Part shown: in pieces, positions 9,863 through 29,400 of the stretch
How the letters are laid out: each line of letters opens with the position of its first letter
Numbering within the stretch: the first letter of the stretch is position 1
Source: an uncultured Lentimicrobiaceae bacterium
GTDB taxonomy: Bacteria > Bacteroidota > Bacteroidia > Bacteroidales > 4484-276
NCBI GenBank assembly: GCA_964395075.1
Contig: CAYNDN010000001.1
Coordinates: 13,182-54,743, forward strand
DNA: 41,562 bases
Reading direction: 5' to 3'
The notes under the pieces: model-generated
Databases searched by the model: none
What the model was told of the DNA's origin: nothing
Seen by the model: only the letters and a program-made list of their open reading frames with translations
Program-made: the position numbers and the translations under genes

Positions 9863-9882
9863 TAGTAATAATTGGATATTGA

Positions 9883-9912
9883 AAGCCCCGAAATTTTTCG
9901 GGGCTTTTTTTA
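9883..9912 (+). terminator. Rho-independent terminator of dnaK
   Basis: aaaGCCCCGAAAtttttCGGGGCttttttt. This is a GC-rich perfect stem (GCCCCGAA/TTCGGGGC) followed by a T7 run, 21 nt after the dnaK stop. Confidence 0.85.
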
Positions 9913-10054
9913 TGCTTTAGTTGTTAACAATAGGGCTTTTACGTTTTTGGATTTTTCTAATTTTAATGCCTTTTTCTTAACAAAAATTTAAATTCTTTTA
10001 CAAGCGAAATAGCCTTTTAATTAACATCTTTGTCAACTATTTAAATTGCGGAAT

Positions 10055-12808: not shown

Positions 12809-12845
12809 ACTTTCAAAATATAAATATTCTAATAGCTAAAAAACG

Positions 12846-15800
12846 ATGAAGAAAACTACAATTTTATTTTTGATTGCCATTTTTGCAATGGCGGGTACCA
12901 AGGCACAATTGCCTGACAACTGGTCTGACGACACAGGTATTGAAATTTTCCAGGAAAACACCGAAGTGCATGGTGGAACATATAGCGCAGGTGTTGTTGT
13001 AAATACTGAAACACAAGGCAATTGCGACTTTGCCAACGAGGTAACTATTCCTGTAAATGCAGGCGACTCCTATACTGTTTCTTTTTGGGCGTTTACAAGT
13101 GCAAACGTTCGCATTACTGCCGCCCTCGACTGGGATAATGGCGCAGAATATCCGGGAACCTACGTTGGTCCGGCAACTTCCGGCTGGGAAGAATACATTC
13201 AGGAAGGTACAGTTCCTGATGGAGCAACAACATTGAATATCCGTTTGCGATTTTATGATGTTTCCGGGTTTGAACCCGGGCAGGTTCAGTATGTTGATGA
13301 TGTAACTTTTGAATCTCCAACAGGAAATCTATTGACAGTAGCCAATGGCGATTTTGAAATATGGCCCGGCCTTTCACCCGAACCCACCGATTACCCCGAA
13401 GAATTTGAAGCATCAGCAGCCGGACTAAGTGCCGTGCTTTCATGGATTGATCCGGCAGGAGGCCAGCTGCCTGAAAACTACCTGATCAAAGCCAGTGTAG
13501 AAGACAACATTTCCAATCCTGAAGATGGCAGCTACATGCCGGATGATCTTAACCTTGCGGATGGCAGTGGTGCCGCCAATGTTGCATATGGCGAAGAAGG
13601 ATTTACATTTTCTGGCCTGACGCCGCAAACAACATATTACTTTAAGATTTTCCCTTACACAAATTCAGGCACAAATGTAGATTACAAGAATGATGGGACA
13701 CCACCTTCAGCGATGGCTGAAATTGCCCAAATCGTAATTATCGAAGCCCAGGATTTTGATGCATCTTTTGGAAGCTGGACACCTGTAAGCCTGGTTGGTG
13801 ATGCTGTTTGGGATCGCGATAACACATTCGGAGTAAATGGCACGCCCTGTGCTCAGATAACTGGTTATGAGAGTGGCAGTGGAACCACATTTGAAAATGA
13901 AGATTGGCTGATCTCTCCACCCATGGATTTTACAGAATACGAAAATGAAATCCTCACATTTTATTCAGCTGTGGGTTATATTACCCCGGATGAGCAATTC
14001 GCTGTTCGTGTTTCAAACGATTACGACGGAATCGGAAATCCCAATGATTTCACCTGGACTGACCTTGATCCAACACTTCCTGATGGAGGTTCAAACTGGG
14101 TTTGGACCTATTCAGGTGAGCTCGACATTTCAGGATTTGATGGTGACAATGTTCATGTGGCCTTTGTGTACTTCTGTGGCACCGACGATGCGGCCACCTG
14201 GGAGGTGGATGAAATCATGATCACCGGTGAGGGTGAGGCCGTAATCACTCCTGAGCCAACCAACTATCCAACAAGTTTTACAGCTACGGCATCAGGTACT
14301 GCGATCAACCTTTCGTGGATGGATGCTACCGGCGAAACCGTTCCAGCGGGATACCTGGTACTGGGAAGCGATCAGGACAATATTGCTCTACCGGTTGATG
14401 GAACACCTGTTTCCGATGATGCTGCTTTGAGCGATGGATCAGGCGCACTGAATATTTTACCCGGAATTCAAGCAGCTTCATTCTCGGGCCTGGCATCAGG
14501 AATGACCTACTATTTCAAGGCTTTCCCCTACACCAATTCAGGTAACCTGATTGATTACAAAACCGATGGAACGCCACCGGCTGCTGAGGCAACCACAGAA
14601 GTTTCAACGGATATTTTGTTTACCGATTTTAATGACAGTTGGGGTGGATGGACACCGGTGAGCCTTGTTGGAAATCAGATTTGGGACAGAAACAATACTT
14701 TTGGGCTTGAAGATTCGCCATGTGCAAAAATGAGTGGTTACGACGGAGAACATTTTGCCAATGAAGATTGGCTTATCTCACCTGTCTTAAACCTTTCAGC
14801 AACCAATAATGAAATTGTCAATTTCTACTCCGCAACAAGTTTCACAGGGCCGGCACTTCAATTTTTAGTATCAGATGATTACGATGGAACCGGAAATCCC
14901 AACGACTTTAACTGGAGCGATTTTTCTCCATTTGTTAATTGGTCAACAGGTGGTTATGAATGGACACTTTCTGGTGATATCGATCTCTCAGCATTTACCG
15001 ACCAGACTATTTATCTGGCTTTTAAATATACCTCTTCAAATCAGGAATCAGCTATTTGGGAAGTTGACAATATTTTTGTAACACAAGGTGAAGCAAAACC
15101 TGAACCCAGTAACTATCCAACCTCTTTCAGTGTTTTTGCACTTCAGCAAACCATTACTGCAACATGGGCTGATGCAAGTGGAGATGCTATCCCTGATGGA
15201 TACCTGCTTTTGATCAGCGATCAGGAAACAATTTCGCTACCTGATGACGGCACACCTGTGACTGATGATACCGATTTTAGTGATGGCAATGGTGCAATGA
15301 ATGTTATGCCCGGAACAGAAACCTCTACATTTATCGGACTACAGGAGTTAACAACTTATTATCTTGTTATTACTCCCTACACCAATTCTGGTTCCCTTAT
15401 TGATTATAAAACAGATGGCTTTCCACCAAGCGGTTCTGTGGCAACTGAAGAAGCAGCCCCGGAATTGCTATTCACAACATTCGACCTGGATTGGGAAGGC
15501 TGGACTCCGGTAAGTGCTATTGGTGATCAGGTTTGGAGCAGGGATAATTCTTATGGTATCGAAGGCACACCTTGTGCTCAAATGAGCGGCTATGAAGGTG
15601 AAGCTTACGAAAATCAGGATTGGCTCGTTTCACCGGTCATTGATTTAAGTGCCACCGTTAACGAGAAGTTAATATTTTTCTCAGCACTGGGTTACTCAGG
15701 CCCTGCTTTGCAATTATTTGTTTCCAGCGTGTATGATGGCTCTGGAAACCCCGCTGATTTCCCGTGGGATGAACTTACCGATCAGGCTGTATGGCCTGAA

Positions 15801-16208
15801 GATGGATCTTTTTTTGAATGGACTGAATCCGGAATTATCGATCTCGAAGATTATACTAACGAAACCATTTATATTGCTTTCGTTTATTCTTCCGAAGATG
15901 GGAATGCTGCAACATGGGAGGTTGACAATATTAAAGTAACAGGATATCCCAGCAGCCTGCCCGAAAACCTGCCATCAGTAAACCTCAACATCTGGCCAAA
16001 CCCGGCAAATGATGTACTGTACTTCAGTGCTGATGAAGCGGTTTCATCCATCGAGATTTATACAGTTACCGGATCGTTGGTTATCCAGTCAGATTTTGAT
16101 AAAATCTCCGGACAGGTTGATTTGGGAAGTCTCGATCAGGGCATTTATATGGCCAGGATAGTAACAGCAGAAAATAAAATTCTCAGCAGAAGAATCGTAA
16201 TACAATAA
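12846..16208 (+). CDS. T9SS type-A cargo protein: CBM4/9-like N-domain, three (FN3-like + choice-of-anchor-J/cleaved-adhesin-like) units, CTD
   Basis: 1120 aa with signal peptide MKKTTILFLIAIFAMAGTKA|Q. The N-domain is paralogous to those of the 10055 and 16247 genes. FN3-like modules start with PEP(T/S)(D/N)YP at nt 13377, 14250 and 15098. Each is followed by a ~175-aa beta-sandwich-like domain with W(T)PVS..GD.VW.RDN...PCA.(I/M)(T/S)GY...NEDWLISP. The CTD reads LNIWPNPANDVLYF...GIYMARIV...RRIVIQ. Only 37 nt separate it from the upstream gene. Confidence 0.9.
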   Translation: MKKTTILFLIAIFAMAGTKAQLPDNWSDDTGIEIFQENTEVHGGTYSAGVVVNTETQGNCDFANEVTIPVNAGDSYTVSFWAFTSANVRITAALDWDNGAEYPGTYVGPATSGWEEYIQEGTVPDGATTLNIRLRFYDVSGFEPGQVQYVDDVTFESPTGNLLTVANGDFEIWPGLSPEPTDYPEEFEASAAGLSAVLSWIDPAGGQLPENYLIKASVEDNISNPEDGSYMPDDLNLADGSGAANVAYGEEGFTFSGLTPQTTYYFKIFPYTNSGTNVDYKNDGTPPSAMAEIAQIVIIEAQDFDASFGSWTPVSLVGDAVWDRDNTFGVNGTPCAQITGYESGSGTTFENEDWLISPPMDFTEYENEILTFYSAVGYITPDEQFAVRVSNDYDGIGNPNDFTWTDLDPTLPDGGSNWVWTYSGELDISGFDGDNVHVAFVYFCGTDDAATWEVDEIMITGEGEAVITPEPTNYPTSFTATASGTAINLSWMDATGETVPAGYLVLGSDQDNIALPVDGTPVSDDAALSDGSGALNILPGIQAASFSGLASGMTYYFKAFPYTNSGNLIDYKTDGTPPAAEATTEVSTDILFTDFNDSWGGWTPVSLVGNQIWDRNNTFGLEDSPCAKMSGYDGEHFANEDWLISPVLNLSATNNEIVNFYSATSFTGPALQFLVSDDYDGTGNPNDFNWSDFSPFVNWSTGGYEWTLSGDIDLSAFTDQTIYLAFKYTSSNQESAIWEVDNIFVTQGEAKPEPSNYPTSFSVFALQQTITATWADASGDAIPDGYLLLISDQETISLPDDGTPVTDDTDFSDGNGAMNVMPGTETSTFIGLQELTTYYLVITPYTNSGSLIDYKTDGFPPSGSVATEEAAPELLFTTFDLDWEGWTPVSAIGDQVWSRDNSYGIEGTPCAQMSGYEGEAYENQDWLVSPVIDLSATVNEKLIFFSALGYSGPALQLFVSSVYDGSGNPADFPWDELTDQAVWPEDGSFFEWTESGIIDLEDYTNETIYIAFVYSSEDGNAATWEVDNIKVTGYPSSLPENLPSVNLNIWPNPANDVLYFSADEAVSSIEIYTVTGSLVIQSDFDKISGQVDLGSLDQGIYMARIVTAENKILSRRIVIQ

Positions 16209-16246
16209 TCAGATTAACAATTTAAAAATATTCAAATCATAGTCAC

Positions 16247-19200
16247 ATGAAAAAACTAACAGTGCTTTTATCCATAATTCTTTTTGCAATTTCAATGCAG
16301 GCGCAACTCCCGCTGAATTGGGTCGGAGATTCTGATATTGAACCGTTCCAGGAAGCAACCAACGTACACGAAGGCAGCTTCAGTTGTGGAATTATCGTAA
16401 ACTCAGGAACACAGGCCAGCTGCGATTTTGAAAGTGCGGAGGAGATTCCCGTGAATGGCGGCGATTCATTTAAAATGTCATTCTGGGGCATTGCCAGCGA
16501 ATTTGTTCGTGCCCGTGCCAAGATTGTCTGGTCGGACGGAAACACCACCTATGCCACAACTTATCTGGGGCCAAATACCGGTGGCTGGGAAGAATTTTCT
16601 TTTGAAGGCGAAGTGCCTGCGGATGCTACAGGAGCTACTGTTGGCATACGTTACTATGACGTATCAGGTTTTACTCCCGGCGAAATCCAGTACCTCGATG
16701 CCGTTACTTTCGAATCACCCACCGGAAACCCGTTGATGGTTGAAAACGGTGATTTTGAAGACTGGCCGGGCCTGGATCCGGAGCCGGATAATTACCCAAC
16801 AGATTTTACTGCCGAAACCCTTGGTCTCAGCGTTTCATTGTCGTGGACGGATGCCGTGGGAAGCCAGCTACCTGCCGGTTACCTCATCAAGGCAAGCACC
16901 GACAACAACATCACCCTGCCCGAAGATGGTACATTCGTTCCCGATGATCTGGATCTTTCTGATGGAACAGGTGCAGCCAACGTTGCTTTTGGTGAGGAAG
17001 GATTCAGCTTCACCAATCTTGAGGGAGCAACAACTTACTATTTCAAAATTTTCCCATACAGCAATTCAGGTGCAAATGTTGACTATAAAACAGATGGAAC
17101 ACCACCATCAGCCGAAGGGCAAACCTCTGATGTTGTAATTATTGAAGAACAGAACTTTGATGAAAGCTTTGGAGAATGGAGCCTGGTAAGTGTGCTGGGT
17201 GACGAAGTTTGGACCAACGATAATAATTACGGACTGGAAGGCACACCATGCGCACAAATTACCGGCTACGTGAGTGGGACTATCTACCCTAACGAAGACT
17301 GGCTCATTTCACCGGCTATGGATTTTAGCAGCTACGAAAATGAGGTTTTCTCATTCTGGTCGGCTGTTGGATACATCACTGCAAATGAAGTTTTTGGTGT
17401 GCGCATTTCAACTGATTATGATGGAGGCCCTGATCCAAATACTTCTACCTGGACCGACCTCGAACCTGTTTTACCTGATGGCGGAACGAACTGGGAATGG
17501 ACCTATTCTGAAGATATGGATGTTTCGTCGTTTGACGGTGATAACGTTTACGTGGCGTTTATTTACTATTGTGATGATCAGGATGCCTCAACCTGGGAAG
17601 TTGAAAATGTAATGATCACCGGTGAAGGCGAATATACACCCAATCCGGAACCCACAAATTATCCAACTGATTTTTCAGCCATGGCTCAAGGACAGGACAT
17701 CGACCTCTCATGGACCGACGCCACAGGAGCCCAATTGCCGGCCGGATATGTTGTGATTGGTTCAGATGATGGCAGTTTTGAAGTTCCCGTTGACGGAACG
17801 CCGGTTGCCAATGATCCCGACTTCAGCGATGGCTACGGGGTTTTAAATGTTGCACTTGGAACTCAAGCCTGCAGCTTCAACGACCTCATGGGTAACACCA
17901 CCTACTATTTTACCATTTATCCTTATACAAACTCCGGAGCTTACATCGATTACAAAACCGACGGAACTGCCCCCGAAGCTGAAGCCACAACTGTTGAGGT
18001 TTCTTCGTTGCTGTTCACCGACTTTAATGATGACTGGGGTGGCTGGACCACCATCAGCCTGGTGGGTGACCAGCAATGGAGCCGCGACAATACTTACGGA
18101 CTGGAAGATACACCCTGCGCCCTGATGAGTGGCTACCAGAGTGGAAACTTTGAAAATGAAGACTGGCTGATATCACCGCCACTGGATTTTTCGGAAACCA
18201 GCAACGAAGTACTTAAGTTTTTCTCAGCCAAAAATTACACCGGCCCACAGCTTGAACTCAGGGTTTCCACCGATTACGACGGTGCAGGAAATCCAAACGA
18301 TTTCACCTGGACCAACCTCACCAATGAAGTAAACTGGTCCGGTGGCGCATTTGCATGGACAGAATCGGGAACCATCTCACTGTCGCCGTTTACCAGCCAT
18401 ACTTCGGTTTACATTGGTTATCAGTTTTTTTCCACAGATGAAGCTTCAGCAAATTGGGAAATTGATAACGTAGAAGTAATCATGGAAGAGGCTCCCCCGG
18501 AACCCACCAATTACCCCGCCAATTTCAGTGCTGAGGGATATTCAAATGACATTACCCTTTCGTGGACAGACGCCACCGGCGAAGTGTTGCCCGAAAAGTA
18601 TTTATTGCTCGCCAGCGATGATGATGATATTGAACTACCTGAAGATGGCGTCCCGGTAACTGATGACCCTGATCTGTCGGATGGGTCGGCAGCATTAAAT
18701 ATCAGCTATGGCGTTGAAGAACATACCTTTAGTTACCTTGAAATGGGCACCTGGTACTACTTCAGGATTTTTCCCTATACCAATTCAGGTTCACTGATCG
18801 ATTACAAAACCGATGGAACACCTCCCTCCACCTCACAAAAGACATGGGACAGCTATCCTTTAGAAGACATACTATACACAACTTTTGACGAAGACTGGGA
18901 AAACTGGGAGCAGATTAGTATTGCTGGAGACCAGGTATGGGATCGGGATAATACCTTTGGCATCGACGATACACCATGCGCAAGGATCAGTGGATTTAGC
19001 GGTCAGTCCAATGAAAACGAGGATTGGTTAATATCACCCCAGGTTGATGTAGGTGGTTCTTGGTTTGGTGATCAACTCATTTTTAATTCAGCGGTTGGTT
19101 TTAGCGGTCCTGATCTTCAGGTAAAAATTTCTGCCAATTACAATGGGAATGGTGATCCATACAGTGCTGACTGGACTGATGTTACTGAATATGCAAACAT

Positions 19201-19624
19201 GCCTGACGGAGATCCCTTCTGGGAATGGACAAACTCCGGAATTCTCTACCTTGAGGAAATAATCACATTTTACATGGATTATTTGCATGTTGCTTTTGTA
19301 TATGTTTCAACTGTTGACGAATCAGCCACCTGGGAAGTGGATAATATACAGGTGAGGGCTGCATGGGTTACGGGCATCGAAGAAATCAATACCCCGTTCA
19401 TCGACCTTTATCCAAATCCGGGTACAGGTATGTTTAATTTCGAAGTTAAAACTCCGGTTCAGCAAATTGGAATTTATACCATGACCGGTAGCCTGTTGAA
19501 ATTGGCAGAGCCTGACGGAACAGCATTTCAAATGGATTTATCGCATCTGAATAAGGGGATTTATTTTGCCCGGATTGTTGATTCGGATGCAAATATCATT
19601 ACGCAAAAAATAGTGATTAAATAA
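16247..19624 (+). CDS. T9SS type-A cargo protein, tandem paralogue of the 12846 gene with the same architecture
   Basis: 1125 aa with signal peptide MKKLTVLLSIILFAISMQA|Q. It is collinear with the 12846 product and, by eye, roughly half to two-thirds identical. The NEDWLISP motif occurs in all three units. The CTD reads IDLYPNPGTGMFNF...GIYFARIV...QKIVIK. It starts 38 nt after the upstream stop. Confidence 0.9.
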   Translation: MKKLTVLLSIILFAISMQAQLPLNWVGDSDIEPFQEATNVHEGSFSCGIIVNSGTQASCDFESAEEIPVNGGDSFKMSFWGIASEFVRARAKIVWSDGNTTYATTYLGPNTGGWEEFSFEGEVPADATGATVGIRYYDVSGFTPGEIQYLDAVTFESPTGNPLMVENGDFEDWPGLDPEPDNYPTDFTAETLGLSVSLSWTDAVGSQLPAGYLIKASTDNNITLPEDGTFVPDDLDLSDGTGAANVAFGEEGFSFTNLEGATTYYFKIFPYSNSGANVDYKTDGTPPSAEGQTSDVVIIEEQNFDESFGEWSLVSVLGDEVWTNDNNYGLEGTPCAQITGYVSGTIYPNEDWLISPAMDFSSYENEVFSFWSAVGYITANEVFGVRISTDYDGGPDPNTSTWTDLEPVLPDGGTNWEWTYSEDMDVSSFDGDNVYVAFIYYCDDQDASTWEVENVMITGEGEYTPNPEPTNYPTDFSAMAQGQDIDLSWTDATGAQLPAGYVVIGSDDGSFEVPVDGTPVANDPDFSDGYGVLNVALGTQACSFNDLMGNTTYYFTIYPYTNSGAYIDYKTDGTAPEAEATTVEVSSLLFTDFNDDWGGWTTISLVGDQQWSRDNTYGLEDTPCALMSGYQSGNFENEDWLISPPLDFSETSNEVLKFFSAKNYTGPQLELRVSTDYDGAGNPNDFTWTNLTNEVNWSGGAFAWTESGTISLSPFTSHTSVYIGYQFFSTDEASANWEIDNVEVIMEEAPPEPTNYPANFSAEGYSNDITLSWTDATGEVLPEKYLLLASDDDDIELPEDGVPVTDDPDLSDGSAALNISYGVEEHTFSYLEMGTWYYFRIFPYTNSGSLIDYKTDGTPPSTSQKTWDSYPLEDILYTTFDEDWENWEQISIAGDQVWDRDNTFGIDDTPCARISGFSGQSNENEDWLISPQVDVGGSWFGDQLIFNSAVGFSGPDLQVKISANYNGNGDPYSADWTDVTEYANMPDGDPFWEWTNSGILYLEEIITFYMDYLHVAFVYVSTVDESATWEVDNIQVRAAWVTGIEEINTPFIDLYPNPGTGMFNFEVKTPVQQIGIYTMTGSLLKLAEPDGTAFQMDLSHLNKGIYFARIVDSDANIITQKIVIK

Positions 19625-19636
19625 AACAACTTACAA

Positions 19637-19670
19637 AGGTATTCCGGCGAAATCCGGGATACCTTTTTTA
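19637..19670 (+). terminator. Rho-independent terminator closing the 10055-12846-16247 transcription unit
   Basis: AGGTATTCCGG-cgaaat-CCGGGATACCT forms an 11-bp stem with one G-U pair, followed by TTTTTT. It starts 13 nt after the 16247 gene stop. No comparable hairpin exists in the 37- and 38-nt spacers upstream. Confidence 0.85.
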
Positions 19671-19721: not shown

Positions 19722-22700
19722 ATGAAAAAGCTTTTACAATTTATGCCGCTACTGATTTTGCCGGTAGCATTCATCTTAATGTCGTACAGTTCAGGCTCTC
19801 CGGGCGGCCGTTCCGGCTCTCCCGGCGATGGCGGAAATAGTTGTGTGCAATGCCACAGCAGTTTTCCAACCATTAGTGTTACCGACTGGATAACATCCGA
19901 TATCCCCGCCGGGGGCTATGAGCTGAGTGAAGTTTACAACATCACCATGACAGGTATCCATGAAGGAGTATCGAAATTCGGTTTTGAATTTACTGCTGAA
20001 GACAGCGAGGGAAACAAAGTGGGAACACTCTCCATTTTAAACCCTACCGAAACCCAGCTTACCAACGGGACGGTGGCAGCCACACACACCTCCCAGGGTA
20101 CAACACCAATAGGAGATTCAAAATCCTGGACTGTGGAGTGGACCGCTCCTGACGATCCGGCTGGCGATGTTACCTTTTACGCTTCGTTAAATGCTGCCAA
20201 TGGAAATGGCAGCACCTCAGGTGATCAGATTTACCTGGGATCGCTCACCGTTGGCGAAGTGGGCTCAGGCGGTGGAGCTTCTGATCTGTTTTTCTCAGAA
20301 TATGCCGAAGGTTCCAGCTATAACAAATATGTTGAGATTTATAATGGTACTGGTACAGCTGTTGATTTATCAATATATGAAGTTAAGATTGCAAGTAACG
20401 GAAATGCTTGGGGAAATACTCAAGCCTTGAGTGGTGATTTAGCGGATGGTGATGTTTTTATTCTTGCTCATGCTTCCGCATCTACTGAAATTCTTGCATT
20501 GGCAAATATCACCAATAGTAGTGTGATAAACTTTAATGGTGATGATGCGATGGGTCTTTTTAAAGATGGTATACTCATTGATGCTATCGGCGTTGAAAAT
20601 GAAGACCCGGGTTCGTACTGGCCTGTTGCCGGCGTGAGTAATGGAACACAAAATCATACCCTTGTAAGAAAGCCCGACGTTTGCGAACCCACAACCGACT
20701 GGGCACTTTCTGCAGGCACCAATGCCGACGATTCGCAATGGATCGTTAATCCTCAGAATTATTGGGACAACCTTGGTTTTCATATTTCAAACTGTCAGGG
20801 TGGCCAGATTGTGGCTACACCTGAGTTTTCTGAGCCCGGCGGAACCTACACCGAACCCATCAGTGTATCGATAACCTGCGCCACAGCCGGTGCAGATATT
20901 TATTACACCACCGATGGAACCGATCCGGATGAAAACTCAACTCCTTACCTCCTGCCCATCAGCATCAGCGAAACTACAACCCTCAAAGCCAGGGCTTACG
21001 CTGACGGCTTTGATCCGAGCTTTATCGCCACAGCGGTTTACAATTTCCCGGAAACGGTTTCAACACTTGCTGAACTTAGAAATGGAACAATTGGAAACAC
21101 TTACCTCTTAACCGGCGAAGTATGGCTCACTTATCAGCAAAGCTTCCGCGGACAAAAATACATTCAGGATGCAACCGCTGGTATCCTAATCGACGATGAT
21201 GCCGGAATCATCACCACTGTTTACCAAATTGGCGATGGAATCCAGGGAATCTCAGGAACCCTCGGAGAATATGACGGCATGATGCAATTTGTTCCGGATA
21301 CTGATCCGGGCGATCCGGTTTCTTCAGGAAACTTCCCAACACCTCAGGTTGTAACACTCGATGAGTTGTTTACCAATTTTGAAGATTATGAATCGGAACT
21401 TGTTCAGGTTAATGATATAACATTTACCGATGGTGGTGGAACTTTTGATAATGGCCAAATATATCCAATTTCGGATGCTTCAAAGGCCGATGCCAATTTC
21501 AGGTCCACATTCTGGTATGTTGATTATATCGGAACCACAATCCCGGATATTGCTTTGGACATTGTTGGCTTACCCAATGCTTACGACAATGAAAACTACA
21601 TCACCAGTCGCAACCTCAACGACTTCCTGCTCGGTAACATCGTAGCAACACCCTATTTCGAACCGGAAGGTGGCCAGTATGAAAACCCGGTAATGGTTGA
21701 AATTCTTTGCGACACAGATGATGCTGAAATTTACTATACAACCGACGGCACCGATCCCGACCAAAGCTCAACACTGTTTATCGATCCCTTTGAGATTTCG
21801 GAAACCACAACTGTTAAAGCTCGTGCTTACAAGGAAGGATTCGATCCCAGTTTGATTGGTACAGCCCAGTATTATTTTGCTGAAACCGTTGCAACACTGG
21901 CAGAACTTCGTGCAGGTGTTATCGGGAACACTTATACGCTTGATGGTGAAGTATGGATTACATTCATGCAAAGCTACCGAAATCAGAAATTTGTTCAGGA
22001 CGAAACAGCAGCTATTTTAATTGATGATAATGATGGAATCCTAAACTCAGATTTAGAAATTGGTGATGGAATAACCGGCCTTTCGGGTGTTTTGGACGAA
22101 TACAACGGCATGTTGCAATTTGTTCCGGATGCCGATCCGGGCGACCCAACCTCATCAGGAAACTTCCCGGAACCACAACTGGTAACCATCAACGAATTGT
22201 TTGCCAATTTTGAAGATTACGAGGCCGAGCTGGTAAAAATTGAATCAGCAACATTTGCAGATGCAGGCGGAACTTTCTCCACAGGTACCGTTTATCCGAT
22301 CTCAGATGATTCGAAAGCCAATGGTAATTTCAGAACATCTTTCTACGATGCTGATTACATCGGATCGGACATTCCCGCTGCTCCTACTGACATTATCGGG
22401 TTGCCCAATGCCGTTTACAACGAAAACTATATCACAGCCCGATCCGATGCCGACCTGATCGTAAACCAGGTGCCCCCGGAAATTGTGGTACAGACCCCCA
22501 ACGGCGGCGAAACCTGGCAGCAAACCAAAACCTATACTATCGAATGGCTTAACCTCAACTTTGCCGGCAATGTAAACATCAACCTCCTCCGGGGAGCATT
22601 CACAAATATAGCCCTTGCACAGGACATTCCCAATACCGGAAGCTGGTCGTGGACCATTCCTGAGAGCATCACTCCGGCAGCCGATTGGAAAATAAGGGTA

Positions 22701-25700
22701 GCTGGTGTAACTGCCGGCGATCCGTTTGATAACAGCGACGATGTGTTTGAAATCATCGAGCCTTTGCCTGATCCGGATATCGTGATCAACGAAATTATGT
22801 ATGACCCACCTGAATCTGGAACAGATAGTTTAGAATATATCGAACTATATAATAATAGTGGGTTTGATGTAGAGATTTCTGGTTGGAGTTTTTCTGAAGG
22901 AGTAAGCTATACTTTTGAAGAAGGACAGATGATTCTAAATGATGAGTATCTTGTTATTGCAGGTAATGCATCTGCTGTTTCAAATACTTATGGTATAACA
23001 GGCGTTTTGCAATGGACCTCTGGTGGATTAAGTAACGGTGGTGAGGATATCATTTTGATAAATGAATTGGGTGTTGAAATGGATATGGTTGATTATGACG
23101 ATTCACCTCCATGGCCAACAGAACCAGATGGAAATGGTCCTTCTTTAGAGTTAATTGATCCTAACCTGGATAACAGCTTGCCCGAAAGTTGGATGGGTAG
23201 TATAGAGCCTAATCCAAATGGAACCCCCGGTGCTGTGAACTCGGTATTTGGTGCTGAATTTATTACGCTGGTAGCACCCAACGGCGGCGAAACTTTCGAG
23301 CAGGGCAGCTCGCAGGAAGTATCGTGGACTTACAGCGGATTTGATGGTGACCTTAAAATCGGGATCATCGACGTGGTGCTTGAAGATACCACAACCCTGG
23401 CCGAAAATGTGCCGGTTGAATTTGGCCTGTGGGACTGGGAAGTTCCAGGTGATTTCACTACCGGCGACAACTATAAAATACTGATTTCGGAAATGACAGA
23501 TGGCGAACCCATGGACGAAAGCGATGCTGTGTTCAGCGTGGTTGAACAAATAATTCCCGTTATTACGGTTACCGCTCCCAATGGCGGTGAATCATGGACT
23601 CAGGGAACCTCCCGCAATATTACATGGGTGTCGGAATTTGTGACCGTTGATGTAAAGGTTGAACTGTCTGACGGTACTGATGCAATCATACTACTTGAAG
23701 ATTCTATTCCGGTTGCCAATGGTTTATTTGTTTGGGAAATTCCCGCTGACCAAACTGCTGGCGATACATACAGTGTTATCGTTTCTACAATGGACGGAGT
23801 TGTATCAGATATAAGTGATGCACCGTTCTCAATTGTTGAACCGGAACCTGTTCCTGAACTCGTAATTAATGAGATTATGTATAACACGCCTGGCCTCGAT
23901 AACGAATGGTGTGAAATCTATAATCCTGGTACTGAAACCATCAACCTTGAAGGATTTTACCTGCTCGACAGTGATGACGACCATACGCCGGTAGTGTTCC
24001 CGGCTGGTTATAGCATTGCTCCGGGACAGTATTTTACAATATCACTTGAACTATTAAATCCCCCTTTGGCATTCGTTCCCGACTTTGAGGGCATTGCGGA
24101 GTGGGCACTGAATAACGGAGGTGACGAACTCAGGCTTTTCCATTCCTCCGCACAATTAATTAATGCCGTAGCTTACGATGATGGTGGCGACTGGCCATCT
24201 GAACCGGATGGAAACGGCCCTTCACTTTCATTACTTGAACCGATACTCGACAACAGCCTCGGTGAAAACTGGGCCGGCAGCCTCCAGGACAACGGCACAC
24301 CGGGAAGCGAAAACTTCCCGACAACACCGACCATTACAGTGGTTACACCCAACGGCGGCGAATCCATTCAGCAGGGAACCACCTACGATATCACCTGGAC
24401 GTATGCCAACTACGACGGCACTGTGAAAGTTGAGCTCATAACACCGGACAAGGCGGCTACAACACTTGGCTACGCAGCTCTAGCTGATATGATGTTTGCA
24501 TGGATGGTTTCAGAAGATACCGGAGATAGCTACACCGTAATGGTTTCCGATTCACTTACCGGCGATCCGATGGATGAAAGCGATGCACCATTTTCAATCG
24601 TTCCACCGGCAGAACTTCCGGATATCGTAATCAACGAAATCATGTACAATGCGCCGGAATCAGGAACCGATTCTCTCGAATTTATTGAGCTTTACAACAA
24701 TGGCGCTGAAATAGTAAACCTCGAAAACTGGTACTTCAGCCAGGGTGTTGATTTCACCTTCCCGAACTATGAACTGGCAGCCGGTGATTATGTGGTTGTT
24801 GCTTATAATGCTGATGTAATGCTCAATAATTTTGGTGTTACAGCTTTGGAATGGACAGGCGGTGGCTTGAGCAATGGTGGTGAAGACATCGAACTCCGCA
24901 ATGCAACTGACGATGTTGTGGATTATGTGGATTATGATGATGGTGGTTTCTGGCCCAATGCGCCGGATGAATATGGCCCGTCACTGGCTCTGGCTGATCC
25001 TGCTTCTGACAACGAACTGCCTGAAAACTGGAAACCCGAAACCGTGTTTGCTTTCGATCATGTTGTTGGCATTCCGGTTTATGCTTCTCCGGGAGCCATG
25101 AATTTCAGCACACCCGGACAGGGAATTTTGGTTTCATCCGGCTGGACAGGTGTTTCAACTTACAATGACCTGGATAATCCGGCAGTGGAACAAAACATGA
25201 GCAGTGTTGTGGATGACCTTGTTGTGATGCAGGATTTCGCGAATATTTATTATCCGGCGTTCAACATCAATACCATCTTAACCTGGCAACCCGACAATGG
25301 TTATCAGCTTAAAATGGATGCAACCCGCTATCTTGTGCTTTACGGAACAGTTTCAGCTGACCAGACAGTTGATCTAACCGCAGGCTGGAACAGTCTGCCG
25401 GTATTGAGTGATTGTGATGTGGAAGCAGCTACATTGTTTACAGACGTAACAGAAGTTGAGTTTGTTAAAGAGATGGGCGGAGATAAAATCTGGTGGCCTG
25501 GCGGAAGTCTGTTTACACTTGATTTCCTTGAACCTGGCAAGGCATATTACATCAAGGTTAGTGCCGATGTAAGCATCACATTTCCGGCATGTACATCCAA
25601 ATCAGGGTTTGAAATTTCTGAAACTTCTTTCATCAACCATACAACCTGGAACGATGCTTCCCCGACCGCTGTTTCTCATGCAATAGGTATTGAAGCAACC

Positions 25701-26252
25701 GCACTTGAGCAATTCAACAAAGGTGATGTGATTGGTGCTTTCACCCAGGAGGGTTTTTGTGCAGGTATGGTTCAGGTAAATCACGAAAGTGCAACGCTGA
25801 TGGTTTGGGGTGATGATATTTACACCAATACAGCAGATGGGCTGTCAGAGGACGAAAACATAATCTTCCGATTTTTTGATGCCGCCACCGGTGAAGTTGT
25901 TGAGCTTGTGCCTGAACTTGACGCGCGATTCGAAAACAGCGGTCAGTTTAAAACACACGGCATTTCTTATATCATTGGGTTCAAGGCTGGTGCAACCGGC
26001 ATAAACGAACTGCAGGCAATTTCAGAAATTTACCCCAACCCAACATCAGGGCTGCTGAATATTTCGGTTGATGCAGATGCTTTTGACAGGATGGAAGTAT
26101 ATTCAGCAATTGGCAGAAAAGTAATGGAGAAGAATATTACTGAAAGCCAGATGGTAATTAATCTTAAAAATCTTGATAACGGTTACTACTTCATTAAATT
26201 TGTAAATTCAGTGAGTGGAGAATTCGAAAGCAATAATTTTATCAAGCAGTAA
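19722..26252 (+). CDS. Giant (2176 aa) multidomain T9SS type-A cargo protein
   Basis: Signal peptide MKKLLQFMPLLILPVAFILMSYS. Approximate module order from motifs:
- Reeler-like domain with CVQCH (19794-20262).
- Class-I LTD, DLFFSEYAEGSSYNKYVEIYNGTG (20281-20790).
- Two copies of [Fn3_assoc/chitobiase-C-like (ADIYYTTDGTDPD) + YhcR-type OB-like (KYIQDATAGILIDD...GTLGEYDGMMQFVP)] (20808-22469).
- Kre9-like Ig domains (PNGGE(T/S)W..G..Y.I.W) alternating with three class-II LTDs beginning near 22780, 23860 and 24625.
- Unnamed domain A (25117-25602).
- Unnamed domain B (25640-26010).
- CTD (IYPNPTSGLLNISV...GYYFIKF...NFIKQ). Confidence 0.9.
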   Translation: MKKLLQFMPLLILPVAFILMSYSSGSPGGRSGSPGDGGNSCVQCHSSFPTISVTDWITSDIPAGGYELSEVYNITMTGIHEGVSKFGFEFTAEDSEGNKVGTLSILNPTETQLTNGTVAATHTSQGTTPIGDSKSWTVEWTAPDDPAGDVTFYASLNAANGNGSTSGDQIYLGSLTVGEVGSGGGASDLFFSEYAEGSSYNKYVEIYNGTGTAVDLSIYEVKIASNGNAWGNTQALSGDLADGDVFILAHASASTEILALANITNSSVINFNGDDAMGLFKDGILIDAIGVENEDPGSYWPVAGVSNGTQNHTLVRKPDVCEPTTDWALSAGTNADDSQWIVNPQNYWDNLGFHISNCQGGQIVATPEFSEPGGTYTEPISVSITCATAGADIYYTTDGTDPDENSTPYLLPISISETTTLKARAYADGFDPSFIATAVYNFPETVSTLAELRNGTIGNTYLLTGEVWLTYQQSFRGQKYIQDATAGILIDDDAGIITTVYQIGDGIQGISGTLGEYDGMMQFVPDTDPGDPVSSGNFPTPQVVTLDELFTNFEDYESELVQVNDITFTDGGGTFDNGQIYPISDASKADANFRSTFWYVDYIGTTIPDIALDIVGLPNAYDNENYITSRNLNDFLLGNIVATPYFEPEGGQYENPVMVEILCDTDDAEIYYTTDGTDPDQSSTLFIDPFEISETTTVKARAYKEGFDPSLIGTAQYYFAETVATLAELRAGVIGNTYTLDGEVWITFMQSYRNQKFVQDETAAILIDDNDGILNSDLEIGDGITGLSGVLDEYNGMLQFVPDADPGDPTSSGNFPEPQLVTINELFANFEDYEAELVKIESATFADAGGTFSTGTVYPISDDSKANGNFRTSFYDADYIGSDIPAAPTDIIGLPNAVYNENYITARSDADLIVNQVPPEIVVQTPNGGETWQQTKTYTIEWLNLNFAGNVNINLLRGAFTNIALAQDIPNTGSWSWTIPESITPAADWKIRVAGVTAGDPFDNSDDVFEIIEPLPDPDIVINEIMYDPPESGTDSLEYIELYNNSGFDVEISGWSFSEGVSYTFEEGQMILNDEYLVIAGNASAVSNTYGITGVLQWTSGGLSNGGEDIILINELGVEMDMVDYDDSPPWPTEPDGNGPSLELIDPNLDNSLPESWMGSIEPNPNGTPGAVNSVFGAEFITLVAPNGGETFEQGSSQEVSWTYSGFDGDLKIGIIDVVLEDTTTLAENVPVEFGLWDWEVPGDFTTGDNYKILISEMTDGEPMDESDAVFSVVEQIIPVITVTAPNGGESWTQGTSRNITWVSEFVTVDVKVELSDGTDAIILLEDSIPVANGLFVWEIPADQTAGDTYSVIVSTMDGVVSDISDAPFSIVEPEPVPELVINEIMYNTPGLDNEWCEIYNPGTETINLEGFYLLDSDDDHTPVVFPAGYSIAPGQYFTISLELLNPPLAFVPDFEGIAEWALNNGGDELRLFHSSAQLINAVAYDDGGDWPSEPDGNGPSLSLLEPILDNSLGENWAGSLQDNGTPGSENFPTTPTITVVTPNGGESIQQGTTYDITWTYANYDGTVKVELITPDKAATTLGYAALADMMFAWMVSEDTGDSYTVMVSDSLTGDPMDESDAPFSIVPPAELPDIVINEIMYNAPESGTDSLEFIELYNNGAEIVNLENWYFSQGVDFTFPNYELAAGDYVVVAYNADVMLNNFGVTALEWTGGGLSNGGEDIELRNATDDVVDYVDYDDGGFWPNAPDEYGPSLALADPASDNELPENWKPETVFAFDHVVGIPVYASPGAMNFSTPGQGILVSSGWTGVSTYNDLDNPAVEQNMSSVVDDLVVMQDFANIYYPAFNINTILTWQPDNGYQLKMDATRYLVLYGTVSADQTVDLTAGWNSLPVLSDCDVEAATLFTDVTEVEFVKEMGGDKIWWPGGSLFTLDFLEPGKAYYIKVSADVSITFPACTSKSGFEISETSFINHTTWNDASPTAVSHAIGIEATALEQFNKGDVIGAFTQEGFCAGMVQVNHESATLMVWGDDIYTNTADGLSEDENIIFRFFDAATGEVVELVPELDARFENSGQFKTHGISYIIGFKAGATGINELQAISEIYPNPTSGLLNISVDADAFDRMEVYSAIGRKVMEKNITESQMVINLKNLDNGYYFIKFVNSVSGEFESNNFIKQ
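20808..22469 (+). repeat. Internal in-frame duplication, 2 x 831 nt (277 aa), of the Fn3_assoc + OB-like cassette
   Basis: Copy 1 starts at 20808 (IVATPEFSEPGGTYTEP...). Copy 2 starts at 21639 (IVATPYFEPEGGQYENP...). They are collinear throughout (YYTTDGTDPD(E/Q), VKARAY(A/K)(D/E)GFDPS, TLAELR.G.IGNTY.L.GEVW(L/I)T, MQFVPD.DPGDP.SSGNFP.PQ(V/L)VT). Protein identity is high but the nucleotide copies are not identical. Confidence 0.85.
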
Positions 26253-26410: not shown

Positions 26411-29400
26411 ATGAAGAAAGTTTCACTATCAATTTTGTTTTTTTTGGCATTTGGGCTGGTAACCACCATCAACGCCCAGCCTTATAATGTCACCTTTCAG
26501 GTGGACATGTCACAATACGGGGGGTCTTTTACAACACCTGAGGTGAATGGTAATTTCAATGATTGGTGTGGTGGCTGTTTTGTGCTTGAGGATCTTGATC
26601 AGGATAATGTCTGGACAGGCACTGCACAATTGGAAGCCGGTGTTTATGAATATAAATTTGCGCACGACAGTTGGGCAGGGCAGGAATATTTAACGCCGGG
26701 GTCTCCCTGTACCATCACTACCAATGGATTTACCAACAGGCTTCTCGAGGTTACTGAAGATGTAACTTTACCTGTAGTTTGCTGGGAGAGCTGCGAAGCT
26801 TGTGGTGTTGTCGTTGAGCCGGTTGATGTTACTTTTCAGGTTGATATGAACGAATATGACGGTACATTTGCCAATGTTTACCTCAGTGGTGAGATGAATG
26901 GCTGGAATGGAACTGCCAATCAAATGCAGGATCCTGACATGGATGGAGTTTACGTAATTACACTATCACTGTTACCTGTTGCTTATGAATATAAGTTTAC
27001 GGTTGATGATTGGTCAGACCAGGAATTTTTTATTGAAGGCCAGATATGCACAGTTTCGGCTTTTGGTTTTACCAACAGGTATGTTGAGGTTACCGAAGCA
27101 GAAGTACTTCCTGTAGTTTGTTGGGAAAGTTGCTTTAGCTGTGGTGAACAGGTAAATGTAACTTTACAGGTAGATATGAACAATGAGGATGTTTCTGAAA
27201 ATGGGGTACATGTAGCCGGAAATTTTCAGGGATGGAACCCTGGTTCAACTCAATTAACTGACACAGGAAACGGCCTGTACACCTACTCGATGACTGTTGA
27301 TCCTGGCTTTCAGTTAGTTTACATTTTTATCAATGGCAACGACTGGGACTTCCAGGAAGCCGTTCCTGCTGAATGTGGGCTGGACAATGGCTTTGGTGGT
27401 TACAATCGCTATTTCGATGTACCTGAGTATGATGTTGTAATCGATGTGGTTTGCTTTGGTAGTTGTGGACTTTGTAACGGCCCAACCGACGAACTTATTA
27501 TTTCAGAATATGCTGAAGGCTCAGGAAGCAATAAATATGTGGAATTGTACAATGGAACAGGAGCCACTATCGATTTGTCGGAATATAATACCCACCGAAT
27601 AAGCAATGGCGGGCTTTGGGTTGATGAATACATTTATCCACTGGAAGGATTTTTGGAAGATGGTGAAGTTTATGTGATTGGCAACAATCAGGCGAATGCT
27701 TATATTCGGGACAGGTCAGATGTTGAAACTTCTTTAACCTGGTTCAATGGTAATGATGCTGTTGGCCTGTCGAAAAATGATGGCCAGGGCGGATGGACTA
27801 TTATCGACCAGGTTGGGGAAGAAGGAGATGCTGAATATTGGGATGTTGCAGGCGTTTCAAGTGCAACAGCCGGACACACACTGGTAAGGAAGATGGATGT
27901 TTGCGCACCAAACACTGACTGGCCTTCATCTGCCGGAACAAATACCGAAGATTCTGAGTGGATTGTTTATGGAGAAGATGATTGGAACAACCTGGGATAT
28001 CACAGCCATTTGTGCGGCGGTTCCCCAATTGTTGCTACTCCTTCTATTTCTGTCCCCTCAGGCTTGTATTTTGCGGCTTTCAATGTTGAATTATCCTGTG
28101 CAACACCCGGCGCAACCATATTCTATACCACTGATGGTTCCGATCCTGACCAGGGATCGGAAGAATATACAGGACCATTCGAAATTGCTGACGATACCGA
28201 ACTTAAAGTAATTGCAGTTGCTATAGGATACGGAAACAGTTTTGCAGCTTCGGCTTCTTACGATCTTGAACTTGCAACCGTTGTAGCTAACCTCGCCGAA
28301 TTGCGTGATGCTTATGGCGAAAAAGATGATTATTATCTGCTTGAAGGCGAGGTAGTGCTTACATTCCAGCAAAGCTATAGAAATCAAAAATTCATCCAGG
28401 ATGAAACTGCAGGTATTTTGATTGATGATTATTCCGGCGTGATTACAACAGATTATAACCGTTATGATGGAATTACCGGACTTGTTGGAACATTAAATGA
28501 ATATAAAAACATGTTGCAGTTTGTTCCTGCCGTTGATCCTGGTGCAGCTACTTCAACAAACAATGAAGTTGTTCCTCAGGTTATTCAACTATCAGAATTC
28601 ACAGGTAACTTTGAAGAATATGAAGCAGAGCTGGTACAAATTCTTGATGTAACTTTCGAAGACGCAGGCTCTTCTTTCTCAAATGGTACAGAGTATCCAA
28701 TCAGCGATGCCAGCAAAGGCGAAGGTGTTTTCAGAACATCTTTCTACTATGTAGATTATATTGGTTCGGCTATCCCACCTGTTGAAATTGGTGTAACAGG
28801 TATTGGTAACTCCAATGATGATGGTGATTTCATTACCGCGCGCGACTTTGGTGATTTGGATATCCCGGATTACGTAATTGTAACTAACCCAAATGGAGGC
28901 GAACAGGTTGAATTTGGAACCGGTTACGATATTTCGTGGGAAACAAACCTCGAAGATGGAACATTGGTTGATGTATATCTCTACGAAAATGACGGTAAAG
29001 CAGAAGAACTCCTTGCAGAAGACCTGTTAATCGAAACCGGCTTGTTCACATGGAATGTAACCCAATCTTATGGAGATAATTATAAAGTGAAAATAGCGGT
29101 TGACGATTCGATGCTCGAAGATATGAGCAACGACTTCTTTTCCATCGTTCCGCCCATCGACATCAAGATTACAGAGATTATGTACAACTCTCCCGAAGGT
29201 GGTGCCGATTCACTGGAATTTGTTGAATTCTACAACAATGGTGAAGGCATCGTAAACCTGATGGACTGGGAAATGACCCAGGGTGCTAATTTTACTTTCT
29301 CCGAGCACTTCCTCAACCCCGGTGAGTATGTACTTGTGGCTGAAAGTGCTGATGCAATGATGAATACTTTTGGTGTTGATGCGTATGAATGGAGTGGCGG

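Follow-up and report, generated by a model that had tools for sequence, protein, structure and literature searches.

Giant type IX-secreted proteins of an uncultured Lentimicrobiaceae bacterium carry a nuclease-less lamin-tail and double OB-fold cassette, a candidate module for holding extracellular DNA

We analyzed 41,562 nucleotides of an uncultured Lentimicrobiaceae bacterium (contig CAYNDN010000001.1 of assembly GCA_964395075.1; this whole stretch is referred to as the window) with regard to two adjacent genes that encode a 2176-aa protein (P1; open reading frame (ORF) 19722-26252, plus strand) and a 1458-aa protein (P2; ORF 26411-30787, plus strand). Both ORFs were uninterrupted. Each protein contains a cassette composed of a lamin-tail domain (LTD) of the type found in the extracellular endonucleases ExeM and NucH, a chitobiase-C/Fn3_assoc domain, and a third domain whose Pfam name is DUF5689 and which is a double OB fold. 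We found that P1 and P2 are a multi-copy, nuclease-less variant of the ExeM/NucH- and DdbD-type module sets, displayed through a type IX secretion system (T9SS). On balance we judged it probable, if by no great measure, that both are T9SS-exported and probably surface-tethered, and that they display the substrate-recognition front end of a nuclease without catalysis, holding extracellular DNA uncut. We infer the surface tethering, the DNA ligand, the need for cations and the physiological role; homology, domain fusions and gene context together suggest DNA as the ligand.

Composition of the cassette and its kinship with ExeM and NucH

The third domain (~197 aa) was examined as three isolated copies, which matched DUF5689 (PF18942) with 37.8, 34.2 and 34.5 bits over model positions ~41-216 of 217. 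Since they pass the curated gathering threshold of 28.6 bits only modestly, at 34-38 bits (~35 bits, versus ~195 bits for canonical members), they constitute a divergent DUF5689 subfamily. The AlphaFold2 model, built from 8 sequences, was all-beta with two consecutive OB-like barrels (pLDDT 93.2, pTM 0.87). An earlier note on this stretch, made from the letters and translations without database searches, had read the domain as a YhcR-type OB fold on the basis of a conserved motif, which spans the first barrel; the OB assignment stood by both fold and profile match, but the domain is a double OB fold rather than a single one. Thirty-five positions of the OB unit were invariant in alignment A1, and the loop signature was strongly conserved across phyla. 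Foldseek comparison with the PDB returned almost exclusively tandem-OB nucleic-acid binders (E 1.7e-4 to 1e-2), with the HIN-200 domains of p204, IFI16, p202 and AIM2 as well as Teb1, POT1 and TEBP-alpha at the top, so that the structural comparison proposed earlier had tandem-OB DNA binders as its best PDB matches. HIN-200 domains likewise place two consecutive OB folds in ~200 residues, and they bind dsDNA independently of sequence; they are eukaryotic, intracellular and basic, whereas the P1/P2 domain is bacterial, extracellular and acidic, and sequence similarity was not detectable (7-14%). No Pfam HIN match was obtained, and the superpositions gave an rmsd of 7-15 A at 7-14% identity and TM-scores of 0.3-0.43. 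As judged from the model, the likeness to HIN-200 would be a fold analogy or very remote homology only.

The OB unit was related to ExeM by profile-profile alignment. Direct searches gave 0 matches at E<=10, whether PDB sequences were searched with the OB unit or NCBIfam with the OB units in isolation and with P1's unannotated C-terminal region; the ExeM HMM therefore does not directly reach the OB unit. Six ExeM/NucH genes were taken from a plasmid collection, their architecture from LTD to EEP was confirmed, and the region between the two was excised as the OB region. When a 277-sequence profile of our subfamily was aligned to the 6-sequence ExeM profile with hhalign, the two matched in register (93.7%, E 1.8e-7), and with a 126-sequence ExeM profile the match reached 96.6% probability (E 5.2e-10, 98 columns). 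Against the full-length ExeM alignment the match was confined to the OB region, and the best score among 60 column shuffles was 22.8, compared to the observed 52.9. In this register, GEVWLT of the third domain corresponds to GVVT of ExeM, KYIQD to GFFIQD, G-L-EY-G-QF to GKV-EY-QTQL, and EDYE-ELV to E-YEGMLV. By these profile alignments the third domain and the YhcR-like OB region of ExeM/NucH are homologous, a similarity that the earlier note had put forward for checking. In Shewanella ExeM this region was reported to contain two YhcR-kind OB folds, and its deletion abolishes DNA degradation in vitro, the LTD being only contributory; a targeting role has been proposed for the LTD (PMC6085458).

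The resemblance of the first part of the cassette to the N-terminal LTD of ExeM/NucH, also noted earlier, was borne out by model match, identity and a common motif. Pfam LTD (PF00932; gathering threshold 34.3 bits) scored 223 bits over 4 stretches of P1 and 102.8 bits over 2 stretches of P2, and only the first LTD in each protein is of the ExeM kind. In P1 the first stretch (residues 187-377) was the sole LTD matching the NCBIfam ExeM model (NF033680; model positions 24-199, E 8.7e-20), and residues 187-359 were ~40% identical by tblastn to the LTD located N-terminally in endonucleases annotated as ExeM/NucH, with matches in Runella, Nostoc, Deinococcus, Pseudoalteromonas and Aeromonas. The motif SEYxEGSxxNKxxExYN is common to the first LTDs of P1 and P2 and to those of ExeM/NucH. 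Scored as whole proteins, P1 (70.4 bits) and P2 (64.5 bits) did not reach the ExeM cut-off of 1300. The chitobiase-C domain described earlier as following the LTD was matched by PF13290 and PF13287, with two stretches in P1 (CHB_HEX_C_1/Fn3_assoc, E 3e-39 and 9e-33).

The P1 cassette covers residues 187-916 (window 20281-22469), and its chitobiase-C and OB parts are repeated in tandem as two 277-aa units, as had been claimed, with 63% identity over 275 aligned residues and zero gaps (E 3e-128). The whole cassette occurs again in P2, where the earlier note had placed it at 27487-28860; all of its domains were confirmed by Pfam within residues 359-815, and P1 residues 175-652 aligned with P2 residues 347-831 at 48.6% identity (E 8e-124). 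Coordinates of all modules are given in the table.

Table. Modules of P1 and P2 and the upstream paralogs, in window coordinates
Feature	Residues	Window	Strand	Basis
Three upstream paralogous T9SS genes		10046..19624	+	Pfam, NCBIfam, paralogy
P1 signal peptide and choice-of-anchor V/Reeler-like domain	16-175 (domain)	19722..20246	+	NCBIfam NF041895 E 2.5e-29; Pfam Reeler E 2.5e-5
P1 ExeM/NucH-type LTD	187-362	20280..20807	+	Pfam LTD; NCBIfam ExeM model
P1 chitobiase-C/Fn3_assoc, copy 1	363-441	20808..21044	+	Pfam PF13290, PF13287
P1 double OB-fold domain (DUF5689 subfamily), copy 1	442-639	21045..21638	+	Pfam, AF2, Foldseek, hhalign
P1 chitobiase-C/Fn3_assoc, copy 2	640-718	21639..21875	+	Pfam; tandem-repeat alignment
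P1 double OB-fold domain (DUF5689 subfamily), copy 2	719-916	21876..22469	+	Pfam 34.2 bits; 63% identity to unit 1
P1 four Kre9/KNH-like immunoglobulin (Ig) starts (PNGGE motif) alternating with three generic LTDs	917-1755	22470..24986	+	Pfam LTD (4 stretches in P1), Kre9_KNH, NEIMY and PNGGE motif positions, paralogy with gene 10046
P1 two unannotated all-beta modules	1756-2100	24987..26021	+	AF2 pLDDT 82; no recognizable enzyme
P1 T9SS type A C-terminal sorting domain (CTD)		26028..26249	+	Pfam Por_Secre_tail E 5e-11; TIGR04183
P2 N-terminal three CBM48/X25/AMPK1_CBM-like modules		26480..27475	+	Pfam PF16561, PF22058, PF02922
P2 ExeM/NucH-type LTD	359-538	27485..28024	+	NCBIfam ExeM model positions 25-182, E 5.2e-18; motif
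P2 chitobiase-C/Fn3_assoc	539-616	28025..28258	+	Pfam
P2 double OB-fold domain (DUF5689 subfamily)	617-815	28259..28855	+	Pfam 34.5 bits
P2 Kre9-like Ig, generic LTD, two unannotated beta modules, T9SS type A sorting domain		28886..30784	+	Pfam; 40% identical to P1 residues 1538-2170

Catalysis was sought throughout. Pfam and NCBIfam found a nuclease domain in neither P1 nor P2, PF03372 (EEP, Exo_endo_phos) being without a match, and none was found elsewhere in the five-gene array to which both belong (10046-30787). A phmmer search of the window ORFs of at least 60 aa, for which Endonuclease I, PLD and three EEP domains from ExeM served as queries, gave nothing, a 110-aa fragment at 2-334 excepted. 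A cryptic catalytic domain in P1 residues 1756-2100 was rejected, as the model of this region (11 sequences, pLDDT 82) was all-beta; Pfam and NCBIfam gave no match, the PDB none at E<=1e-3 (TM at most 0.19), and Foldseek only beta-sandwich fragments of GH2 enzymes (TM 0.15). Two proteins with alpha/beta-hydrolase Pfam domains (P0162 and P0163) were considered as a clue to catalysis in this region and set aside, their common part with it being the non-catalytic module only. The earlier statements that no EEP or other nuclease follows the cassette, and that its modules are uncoupled from catalysis, are hence confirmed by Pfam, NCBIfam, phmmer and the model of the unannotated region.

The unannotated region before the CTD (24987-26021 in P1; 29531-30577 in P2) consists of two beta modules in both proteins. 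The first of these is also present at the C-terminus of P0162 and P0163, which are 458-aa proteins with an N-terminal alpha/beta hydrolase part (dienelactone hydrolase/PETase-like), and is therefore a mobile accessory module.

The fragment at 2-334 had been called an EEP-family enzyme. It carries GDWN and SDHNP motifs, which we take to be typical of the EEP C-terminus, and it has no Pfam or NCBIfam match, so that the motifs speak for the assignment and the family models do not. As a partner nuclease the fragment was rejected: it showed no similarity to the EEP domains of ExeM, and it lies ~10 kb from the array and ~19 kb from the P1 gene, with oppositely oriented mutase genes and dnaK in between. 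Its sole link to the array is the next gene (521-3091; 856 aa, Ig/PKD-like), which has a beta module of P1 (~165 aa, 35% identity to P1 residues 1795-1957, E 5e-25), a weak link.

Comparison with the known nucleases delimited what P1 and P2 are. With ExeM, NucH and Xds (NF033680/NF033681) they share an LTD with the SEYxEGSxxNK motif (~40%), the homologous double OB that comes after it, and a secreted, envelope-associated nature, which for P1 and P2 is predicted. Unlike these nucleases, both have a chitobiase-C domain inserted between LTD and OB, P1 has its OB unit duplicated, and sorting relies on a T9SS CTD rather than on GlyGly-CTERM/rhombosortase; because the EEP catalytic domain is absent, P1 and P2 are not members of the ExeM/NucH family. 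Bacillus subtilis YhcR also has OB folds (YhcR_OBF type) N-terminal to a secreted, wall-anchored sugar-nonspecific nuclease, but it contains SNase and metallophosphatase/5'-nucleotidase domains and an LPXTG anchor, and the likeness of P1 and P2 to it runs via the ExeM OB region, which is classified with the YhcR OB folds (PMC6085458), not via YhcR sequence.

Relatives, nuclease fusions and the DUF5689 proteins of DNA-handling loci

A first, word-indexed homolog search returned 6 relatives only and was superseded by an exhaustive search with HMMER, covering 1.84 billion cluster representatives, in which 3551 proteins reached E<=1e-3 and 980 reached E<=1e-30. Giants with 2-6 copies of the unit were numerous among the homologs; among the top homologs, 57 had one full copy, 78 had two, 13 had three, and 5 had four or five. 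The subfamily was encoded at no fewer than 226 loci in species-representative genomes, spread over Bacteroidota (Bacteroidales, Lentimicrobiaceae, Flavobacteriaceae, Saprospiraceae, Cytophagia-type), Cloacimonadota, Ignavibacteriota/Chlorobiota and Balneolaceae, and the nuclease-less architecture was present in the cultured genera Psychroserpens, Dokdonia, Aquimarina and Mesonia. A P2 ortholog of identical length and 50% identity was found near methylmalonyl-CoA mutase genes in a Bacteroidales metagenome-assembled genome (GCA_028708985.1; locus L009), with the OB core among the best-conserved stretches between the two. Given the wide spread and the conserved ortholog, the nuclease-less cassette is an established, conserved architecture rather than a peculiarity of this window; with thousands of protein clusters that contain it, it is not unusual.

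These relatives also bear on whether P1 and P2 are leftovers of decayed nuclease genes, without function since the loss of the catalytic domain. The module set equals that of nuclease fusions elsewhere, and the five genes form a mosaic paralogous array, as such a history would leave. The uninterrupted ORFs, the intact signal peptide and T9SS CTD, and the ortholog with its conserved OB core all argue against it. Among 56 homologs from a library clustered at 50% identity, Pfam found DUF5689 in 53, a T9SS CTD in 41, chitobiase-C in 27 and an LTD in 14, and no nuclease family in any of the 56 among the 25 listed of the 30 Pfam families found. We therefore rejected decay, on account of the intact ORFs and the conserved ortholog, as highly improbable.

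Eighty related loci were examined for nucleases within 10 kb, with ORFs taken from stop to stop. Three of them encode a fusion of this exact subfamily to Endonuclease I in the same ORF, in the orders LTD-OB-LTD-EndoI (L027), EndoI-OB-LTD-LTD-OB-LTD-OB (L073; 2798 aa) and choiceJ-EndoI-OB (L084), and the signature LTxQQxxRNQKYIQDATAGILIDD...GDGITG..G.L.EYNGMLQF was identical in fused and nuclease-less copies. More canonical DUF5689 domains were fused to PLD-type domains (L018, L060, L085, L087, L008) and to Endonuclease I (Flammeovirga, L004). Across Bacteroidota and Cloacimonadota, the DUF5689 fusions to Endonuclease I or PLD (L004, L027, L073, L084, L085, L087, L018, L060) have the same OB subfamily and identical signature residues, and often the LTD, choice-of-anchor J and T9SS CTD seen in P1 and P2 or their array; unlike P1 and P2, they hold the nuclease in the same polypeptide. 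Operon-like adjacency to Endonuclease I or PLD genes and TonB-dependent transporters was found as well, at seven further loci and at L008: a 2xOB protein is followed directly by an Endonuclease I gene at three loci (L035, L043, L056); two (L085 and L087, the former also with EndoI) group an OB and an LTD protein with a TonB-dependent transporter and an OB-PLD protein; EndoI-choiceJ is followed by a 2041-aa choiceJ/OB giant and then OB-PLD at L018; and a P2-like protein adjoins a TonB-dependent transporter and a DUF5689-PLD protein at L008. In total, a nuclease lay within 10 kb at 10/80 loci, a count given without a background rate; the same-ORF fusions are independent of how often nucleases occur nearby.

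One further locus deserves mention. On plasmid p1 of Flammeovirga kamogawensis (L004; NZ_CP076130.1, 188454-196924) the order is a TonB-dependent receptor, a protein with DUF5689, 2x DUF6359 and an ExeM-type LTD, and a protein with DUF5689, a choice-J-like domain and Endonuclease I. This is a compact locus in a cultured organism, in which the roles of the accessory modules are accessible to genetics.

DUF5689 has been linked to DNA in two published systems. DdbD, which has no annotation other than DUF5689 and is partnered with the TonB-dependent transporter DdbC within the DNA-utilization locus ddbABCDEF of Bacteroides thetaiotaomicron, was modeled by its authors as HIN-like and proposed as a DNA-binding lid of DdbC (PMC12478041); and the Riemerella lipoprotein RA0C_RS04920, with DUF5689 and DUF5017/choice-of-anchor J, is essential for natural transformation (PMC8459023). 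Like P1 and P2, both proteins are non-catalytic; they are surface-exposed, as is predicted for P1 and P2, and both are implicated in the handling of extracellular DNA; a HIN-like tandem OB is predicted for DdbD as for P1 and P2, and the choice-of-anchor J/DUF5017 partner domain of RA0C_RS04920 is present in the neighbor genes 12846 and 16247. In contrast, DdbD and RA0C_RS04920 are ~450-aa lipoproteins encoded beside a TonB-dependent transporter and assigned a lid role, whereas P1 and P2 have an SPI signal and a T9SS CTD, and are giant and multi-modular with no adjacent transporter. Because they are not lipoproteins and lack a transporter partner, P1 and P2 are not DdbD-type lids. As far as computation goes, the two DUF5689 papers, the nuclease fusions and adjacencies, and the OB homology support the earlier suggestion that the cassette is a DNA module (PMC12478041, PMC8459023).

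DNA, glycan or structural coat

Export by T9SS was indicated by the type A CTD, with PF18962 at E 5e-11 (P1) and 1.6e-12 (P2) and TIGR04183 at 34.7 and 48.8 bits, respectively, against a cut-off of 23. No lipoprotein (SPII) lipobox was seen by eye, the N-termini (MKKLLQFMPLLILPVAFILMSYSSG in P1, MKKVSLSILFFLAFGLVTTINAQ in P2) being without cysteine. Surface attachment is expected for cargo with a type A CTD. In the mechanism that we propose, the proteins would be exported by Sec and then secreted by T9SS, the CTD would be removed, and the protein would be fixed to the outer surface. A long acidic stalk made up of Ig-like and LTD repeats would carry several OB units and LTDs, which would then bind extracellular DNA through avidity and irrespective of its sequence. 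The DNA would be held and not cut, serving either attachment to matrices and particles that contain it or presentation to nucleases and transporters encoded elsewhere, the latter a role that would be analogous to that of SusE/F in glycan utilization.

Charge was one difficulty for this proposal. Each OB unit has 6-9 lysine and arginine residues (K/R) versus 30-36 aspartate and glutamate residues (D/E), and P1 as a whole 61 versus 336, which is unusual for a nucleic-acid binder. The ExeM OB regions, at pI 4.05-5.9, and the nuclease-fused DUF5689 copies, at pI 4.1-4.4, are likewise acidic, and acidity is therefore compatible with DNA. Binding of polyanions by electrostatics alone nevertheless becomes implausible, and this element of the earlier note, which had named polyanion binding, is thus unlikely by simple electrostatics. 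The acidity points instead to cation-bridged or base/backbone-specific contacts, which would go via the small number of polar and basic residues conserved in the loop (R..K, QQ, QD). Since the net charge is ~-24 per unit, binding probably needs divalent cations.

Several other observations weigh against DNA as the ligand. Carbohydrate-type modules (CBM48/X25, CBM4_9, chitobiase-C) occur in P1, P2 and their paralogs, and keep a role in glycan adhesion alive. The window has no nuclease, TonB-dependent transporter or competence gene beside the array (17 main ORFs scanned with Pfam; phmmer queries); in particular, no Plug or TonB_dep_Rec was found by Pfam among the 17 main window ORFs, and transporter queries had no match in the window. 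Among the 80 related loci, 70 have no nuclease within 10 kb. HMMER alone gave no link to ExeM, the best E-value of an 8-sequence OB profile against the six ExeM/NucH proteins being 0.0075. The TM-scores of the third-domain model to HIN domains are merely 0.3-0.43, which is because the two barrels differ in orientation; single OB folds superpose at ~3 A. Finally, DNA binding was shown by neither of the DUF5689 papers, DdbD being a model-based suggestion (PMC12478041, PMC8459023).

The strongest competitor is that P1 and P2 are adhesins for glycans or particles, the OB folds and LTDs binding polysaccharide or a cell-surface glycan or acting as spacers, and serving as matrix anchors when they are part of nucleases. 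The name of the OB fold covers oligosaccharide as well as oligonucleotide binding. Three CBM48/X25-like modules start P2, CBM4_9 is present in the paralogs, a chitobiase-C domain precedes each OB unit, and the modules are extremely acidic; the window is without a DNA-related gene by Pfam scan and phmmer, and the role proposed for the LTD is one of targeting (PMC6085458). On the other side, the top structural matches are without exception tandem OBs that bind nucleic acids, degradation of naked plasmid DNA by ExeM in vitro depends on the OB region to which the domain is homologous (PMC6085458), fusion or adjacency to Endonuclease I, PLD nucleases and DNA-uptake-type transporters is repeated, and a DUF5689 protein is genetically required for transformation (PMC8459023). 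We therefore regard glycan or particle binding as unlikely, albeit worth keeping in view.

A purely structural role was also weighed, in which repeats of beta domains build a long stalk without a specific ligand, as in cell-coat or gliding-type surface proteins. The giant size, the many Ig-like repeats (Kre9-like, Fn3, CHB_HEX_C), the T9SS export and the five-gene paralogous array are as expected for such proteins. The very strong conservation of the OB loop signature across phyla, with its 35 invariant positions, would be unexpected for a mere spacer, and the CTD is of type A, not type B as in SprB-like gliding adhesins; this role thus appeared improbable.

The five-gene array and the meaning of the cassette

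P1 and P2 are the last of five consecutive same-strand genes (10046-30787), which encode large acidic proteins that all end in a T9SS type A sorting domain and are mosaic paralogs of one another. The gene at 10046 encodes CBM4_9, Fn3 and 2x LTD, and those at 12846-16208 and 16247-19624 each CBM4_9, Fn3 and 3x choice-of-anchor J (DUF5017). Relatives have choice-of-anchor J together with DUF5689 and Endonuclease I, and L018, L084 and Flammeovirga L004 encode fusions of it with Endonuclease I. Choice-of-anchor J is thus a third recurrent module of nuclease and competence proteins, and its presence in the 12846 and 16247 genes means that the array is built from nuclease-accessory modules. All five proteins have a computed pI of ~4.05 with D/E 5-7 times K/R, compared to pI 5-7 for the cytoplasmic proteins of the window, which points to a coat of highly polyanionic character on the surface that may be laden with cations. 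Strong terminator-like hairpins with 12- and 13-bp stems and a T-run were found after dnaK (9881-9908) and after the 16247 gene (19635-19666), and the terminator scan found no strong hairpin between P1 and P2, which could thus be a transcription unit by themselves, apart from the three upstream paralogs (an array of 3 + 2). A promoter scan was not informative (39 found versus 38 expected). The remaining gene content of the window is of Bacteroidota character and includes methylmalonyl-CoA mutase, DnaK, M16 peptidases, a ROK regulator and GH109.

Four side observations concern the array and its surroundings. The 12846 and 16247 genes encode products that are 55% identical and match the C-terminal half of the NCBIfam 'M949_1556 family lipoprotein', a Riemerella locus-tag name. 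P2 combines a starch/glycogen-type binder and the putative DNA-binding cassette on one polypeptide, a combination kept in L009 and L008. P1 contains, as read from the translation, a CxxCH motif (C-V-Q-C-H) at residues 41-45 (window 19842-19856), inside its choice-of-anchor V/Reeler-like domain; CxxCH is the classical site of covalent haem c attachment, and is odd for a T9SS surface protein. Just downstream of the array, 31672-33168 on the minus strand encodes a protein of 498 aa in which Fn3 is combined with a T9SS type B sorting domain (CHU_C/TIGR04131), so that both classes of T9SS cargo are clustered here.

Biofilms and marine and digester particles contain extracellular DNA as a structural component, and such DNA is also a major pool of nutrients; Bacteroidota and their relatives are key degraders in these settings. 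Surface recognition of DNA in Bacteroidota has come under study only recently, with Riemerella competence (2021) and the Ddb loci (2025). More tentatively than for P1 and P2 themselves, we propose that bacteria of the FCB group may display, via T9SS, widespread giant multivalent 'lectins' for extracellular DNA, in which nuclease-accessory modules (ExeM-type LTD, double OB/DUF5689, choice-of-anchor J) were freed from catalysis and capture the DNA in a cation-dependent manner, for adhesion or as the first step of scavenging and uptake; the array at 10046-30787 would then be one island for capturing extracellular DNA.

Since databases are rich in this architecture and a link of DUF5689 to DNA has been proposed in print, the novelty is moderate. 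Beyond the earlier note, our analysis added the DUF5689 identity, the double OB, the homology to the OB region of ExeM and the nuclease fusions elsewhere, and its worth is that it gives a very large uncharacterized class of proteins a concrete prediction of function that is easy to test. If the cassette does not bind DNA, the role of the same modules inside nucleases would need rethinking. If the LTD and DUF5689 cassette does bind DNA, a function would be gained for thousands of T9SS proteins now called 'lamin tail domain-containing' or hypothetical, and a connection would be made between the DUF5689 family and the classical OB region of ExeM/YhcR. It would also imply a non-catalytic, SusE/F-like layer of DNA capture, testable via a small, well-folding 200-aa domain.

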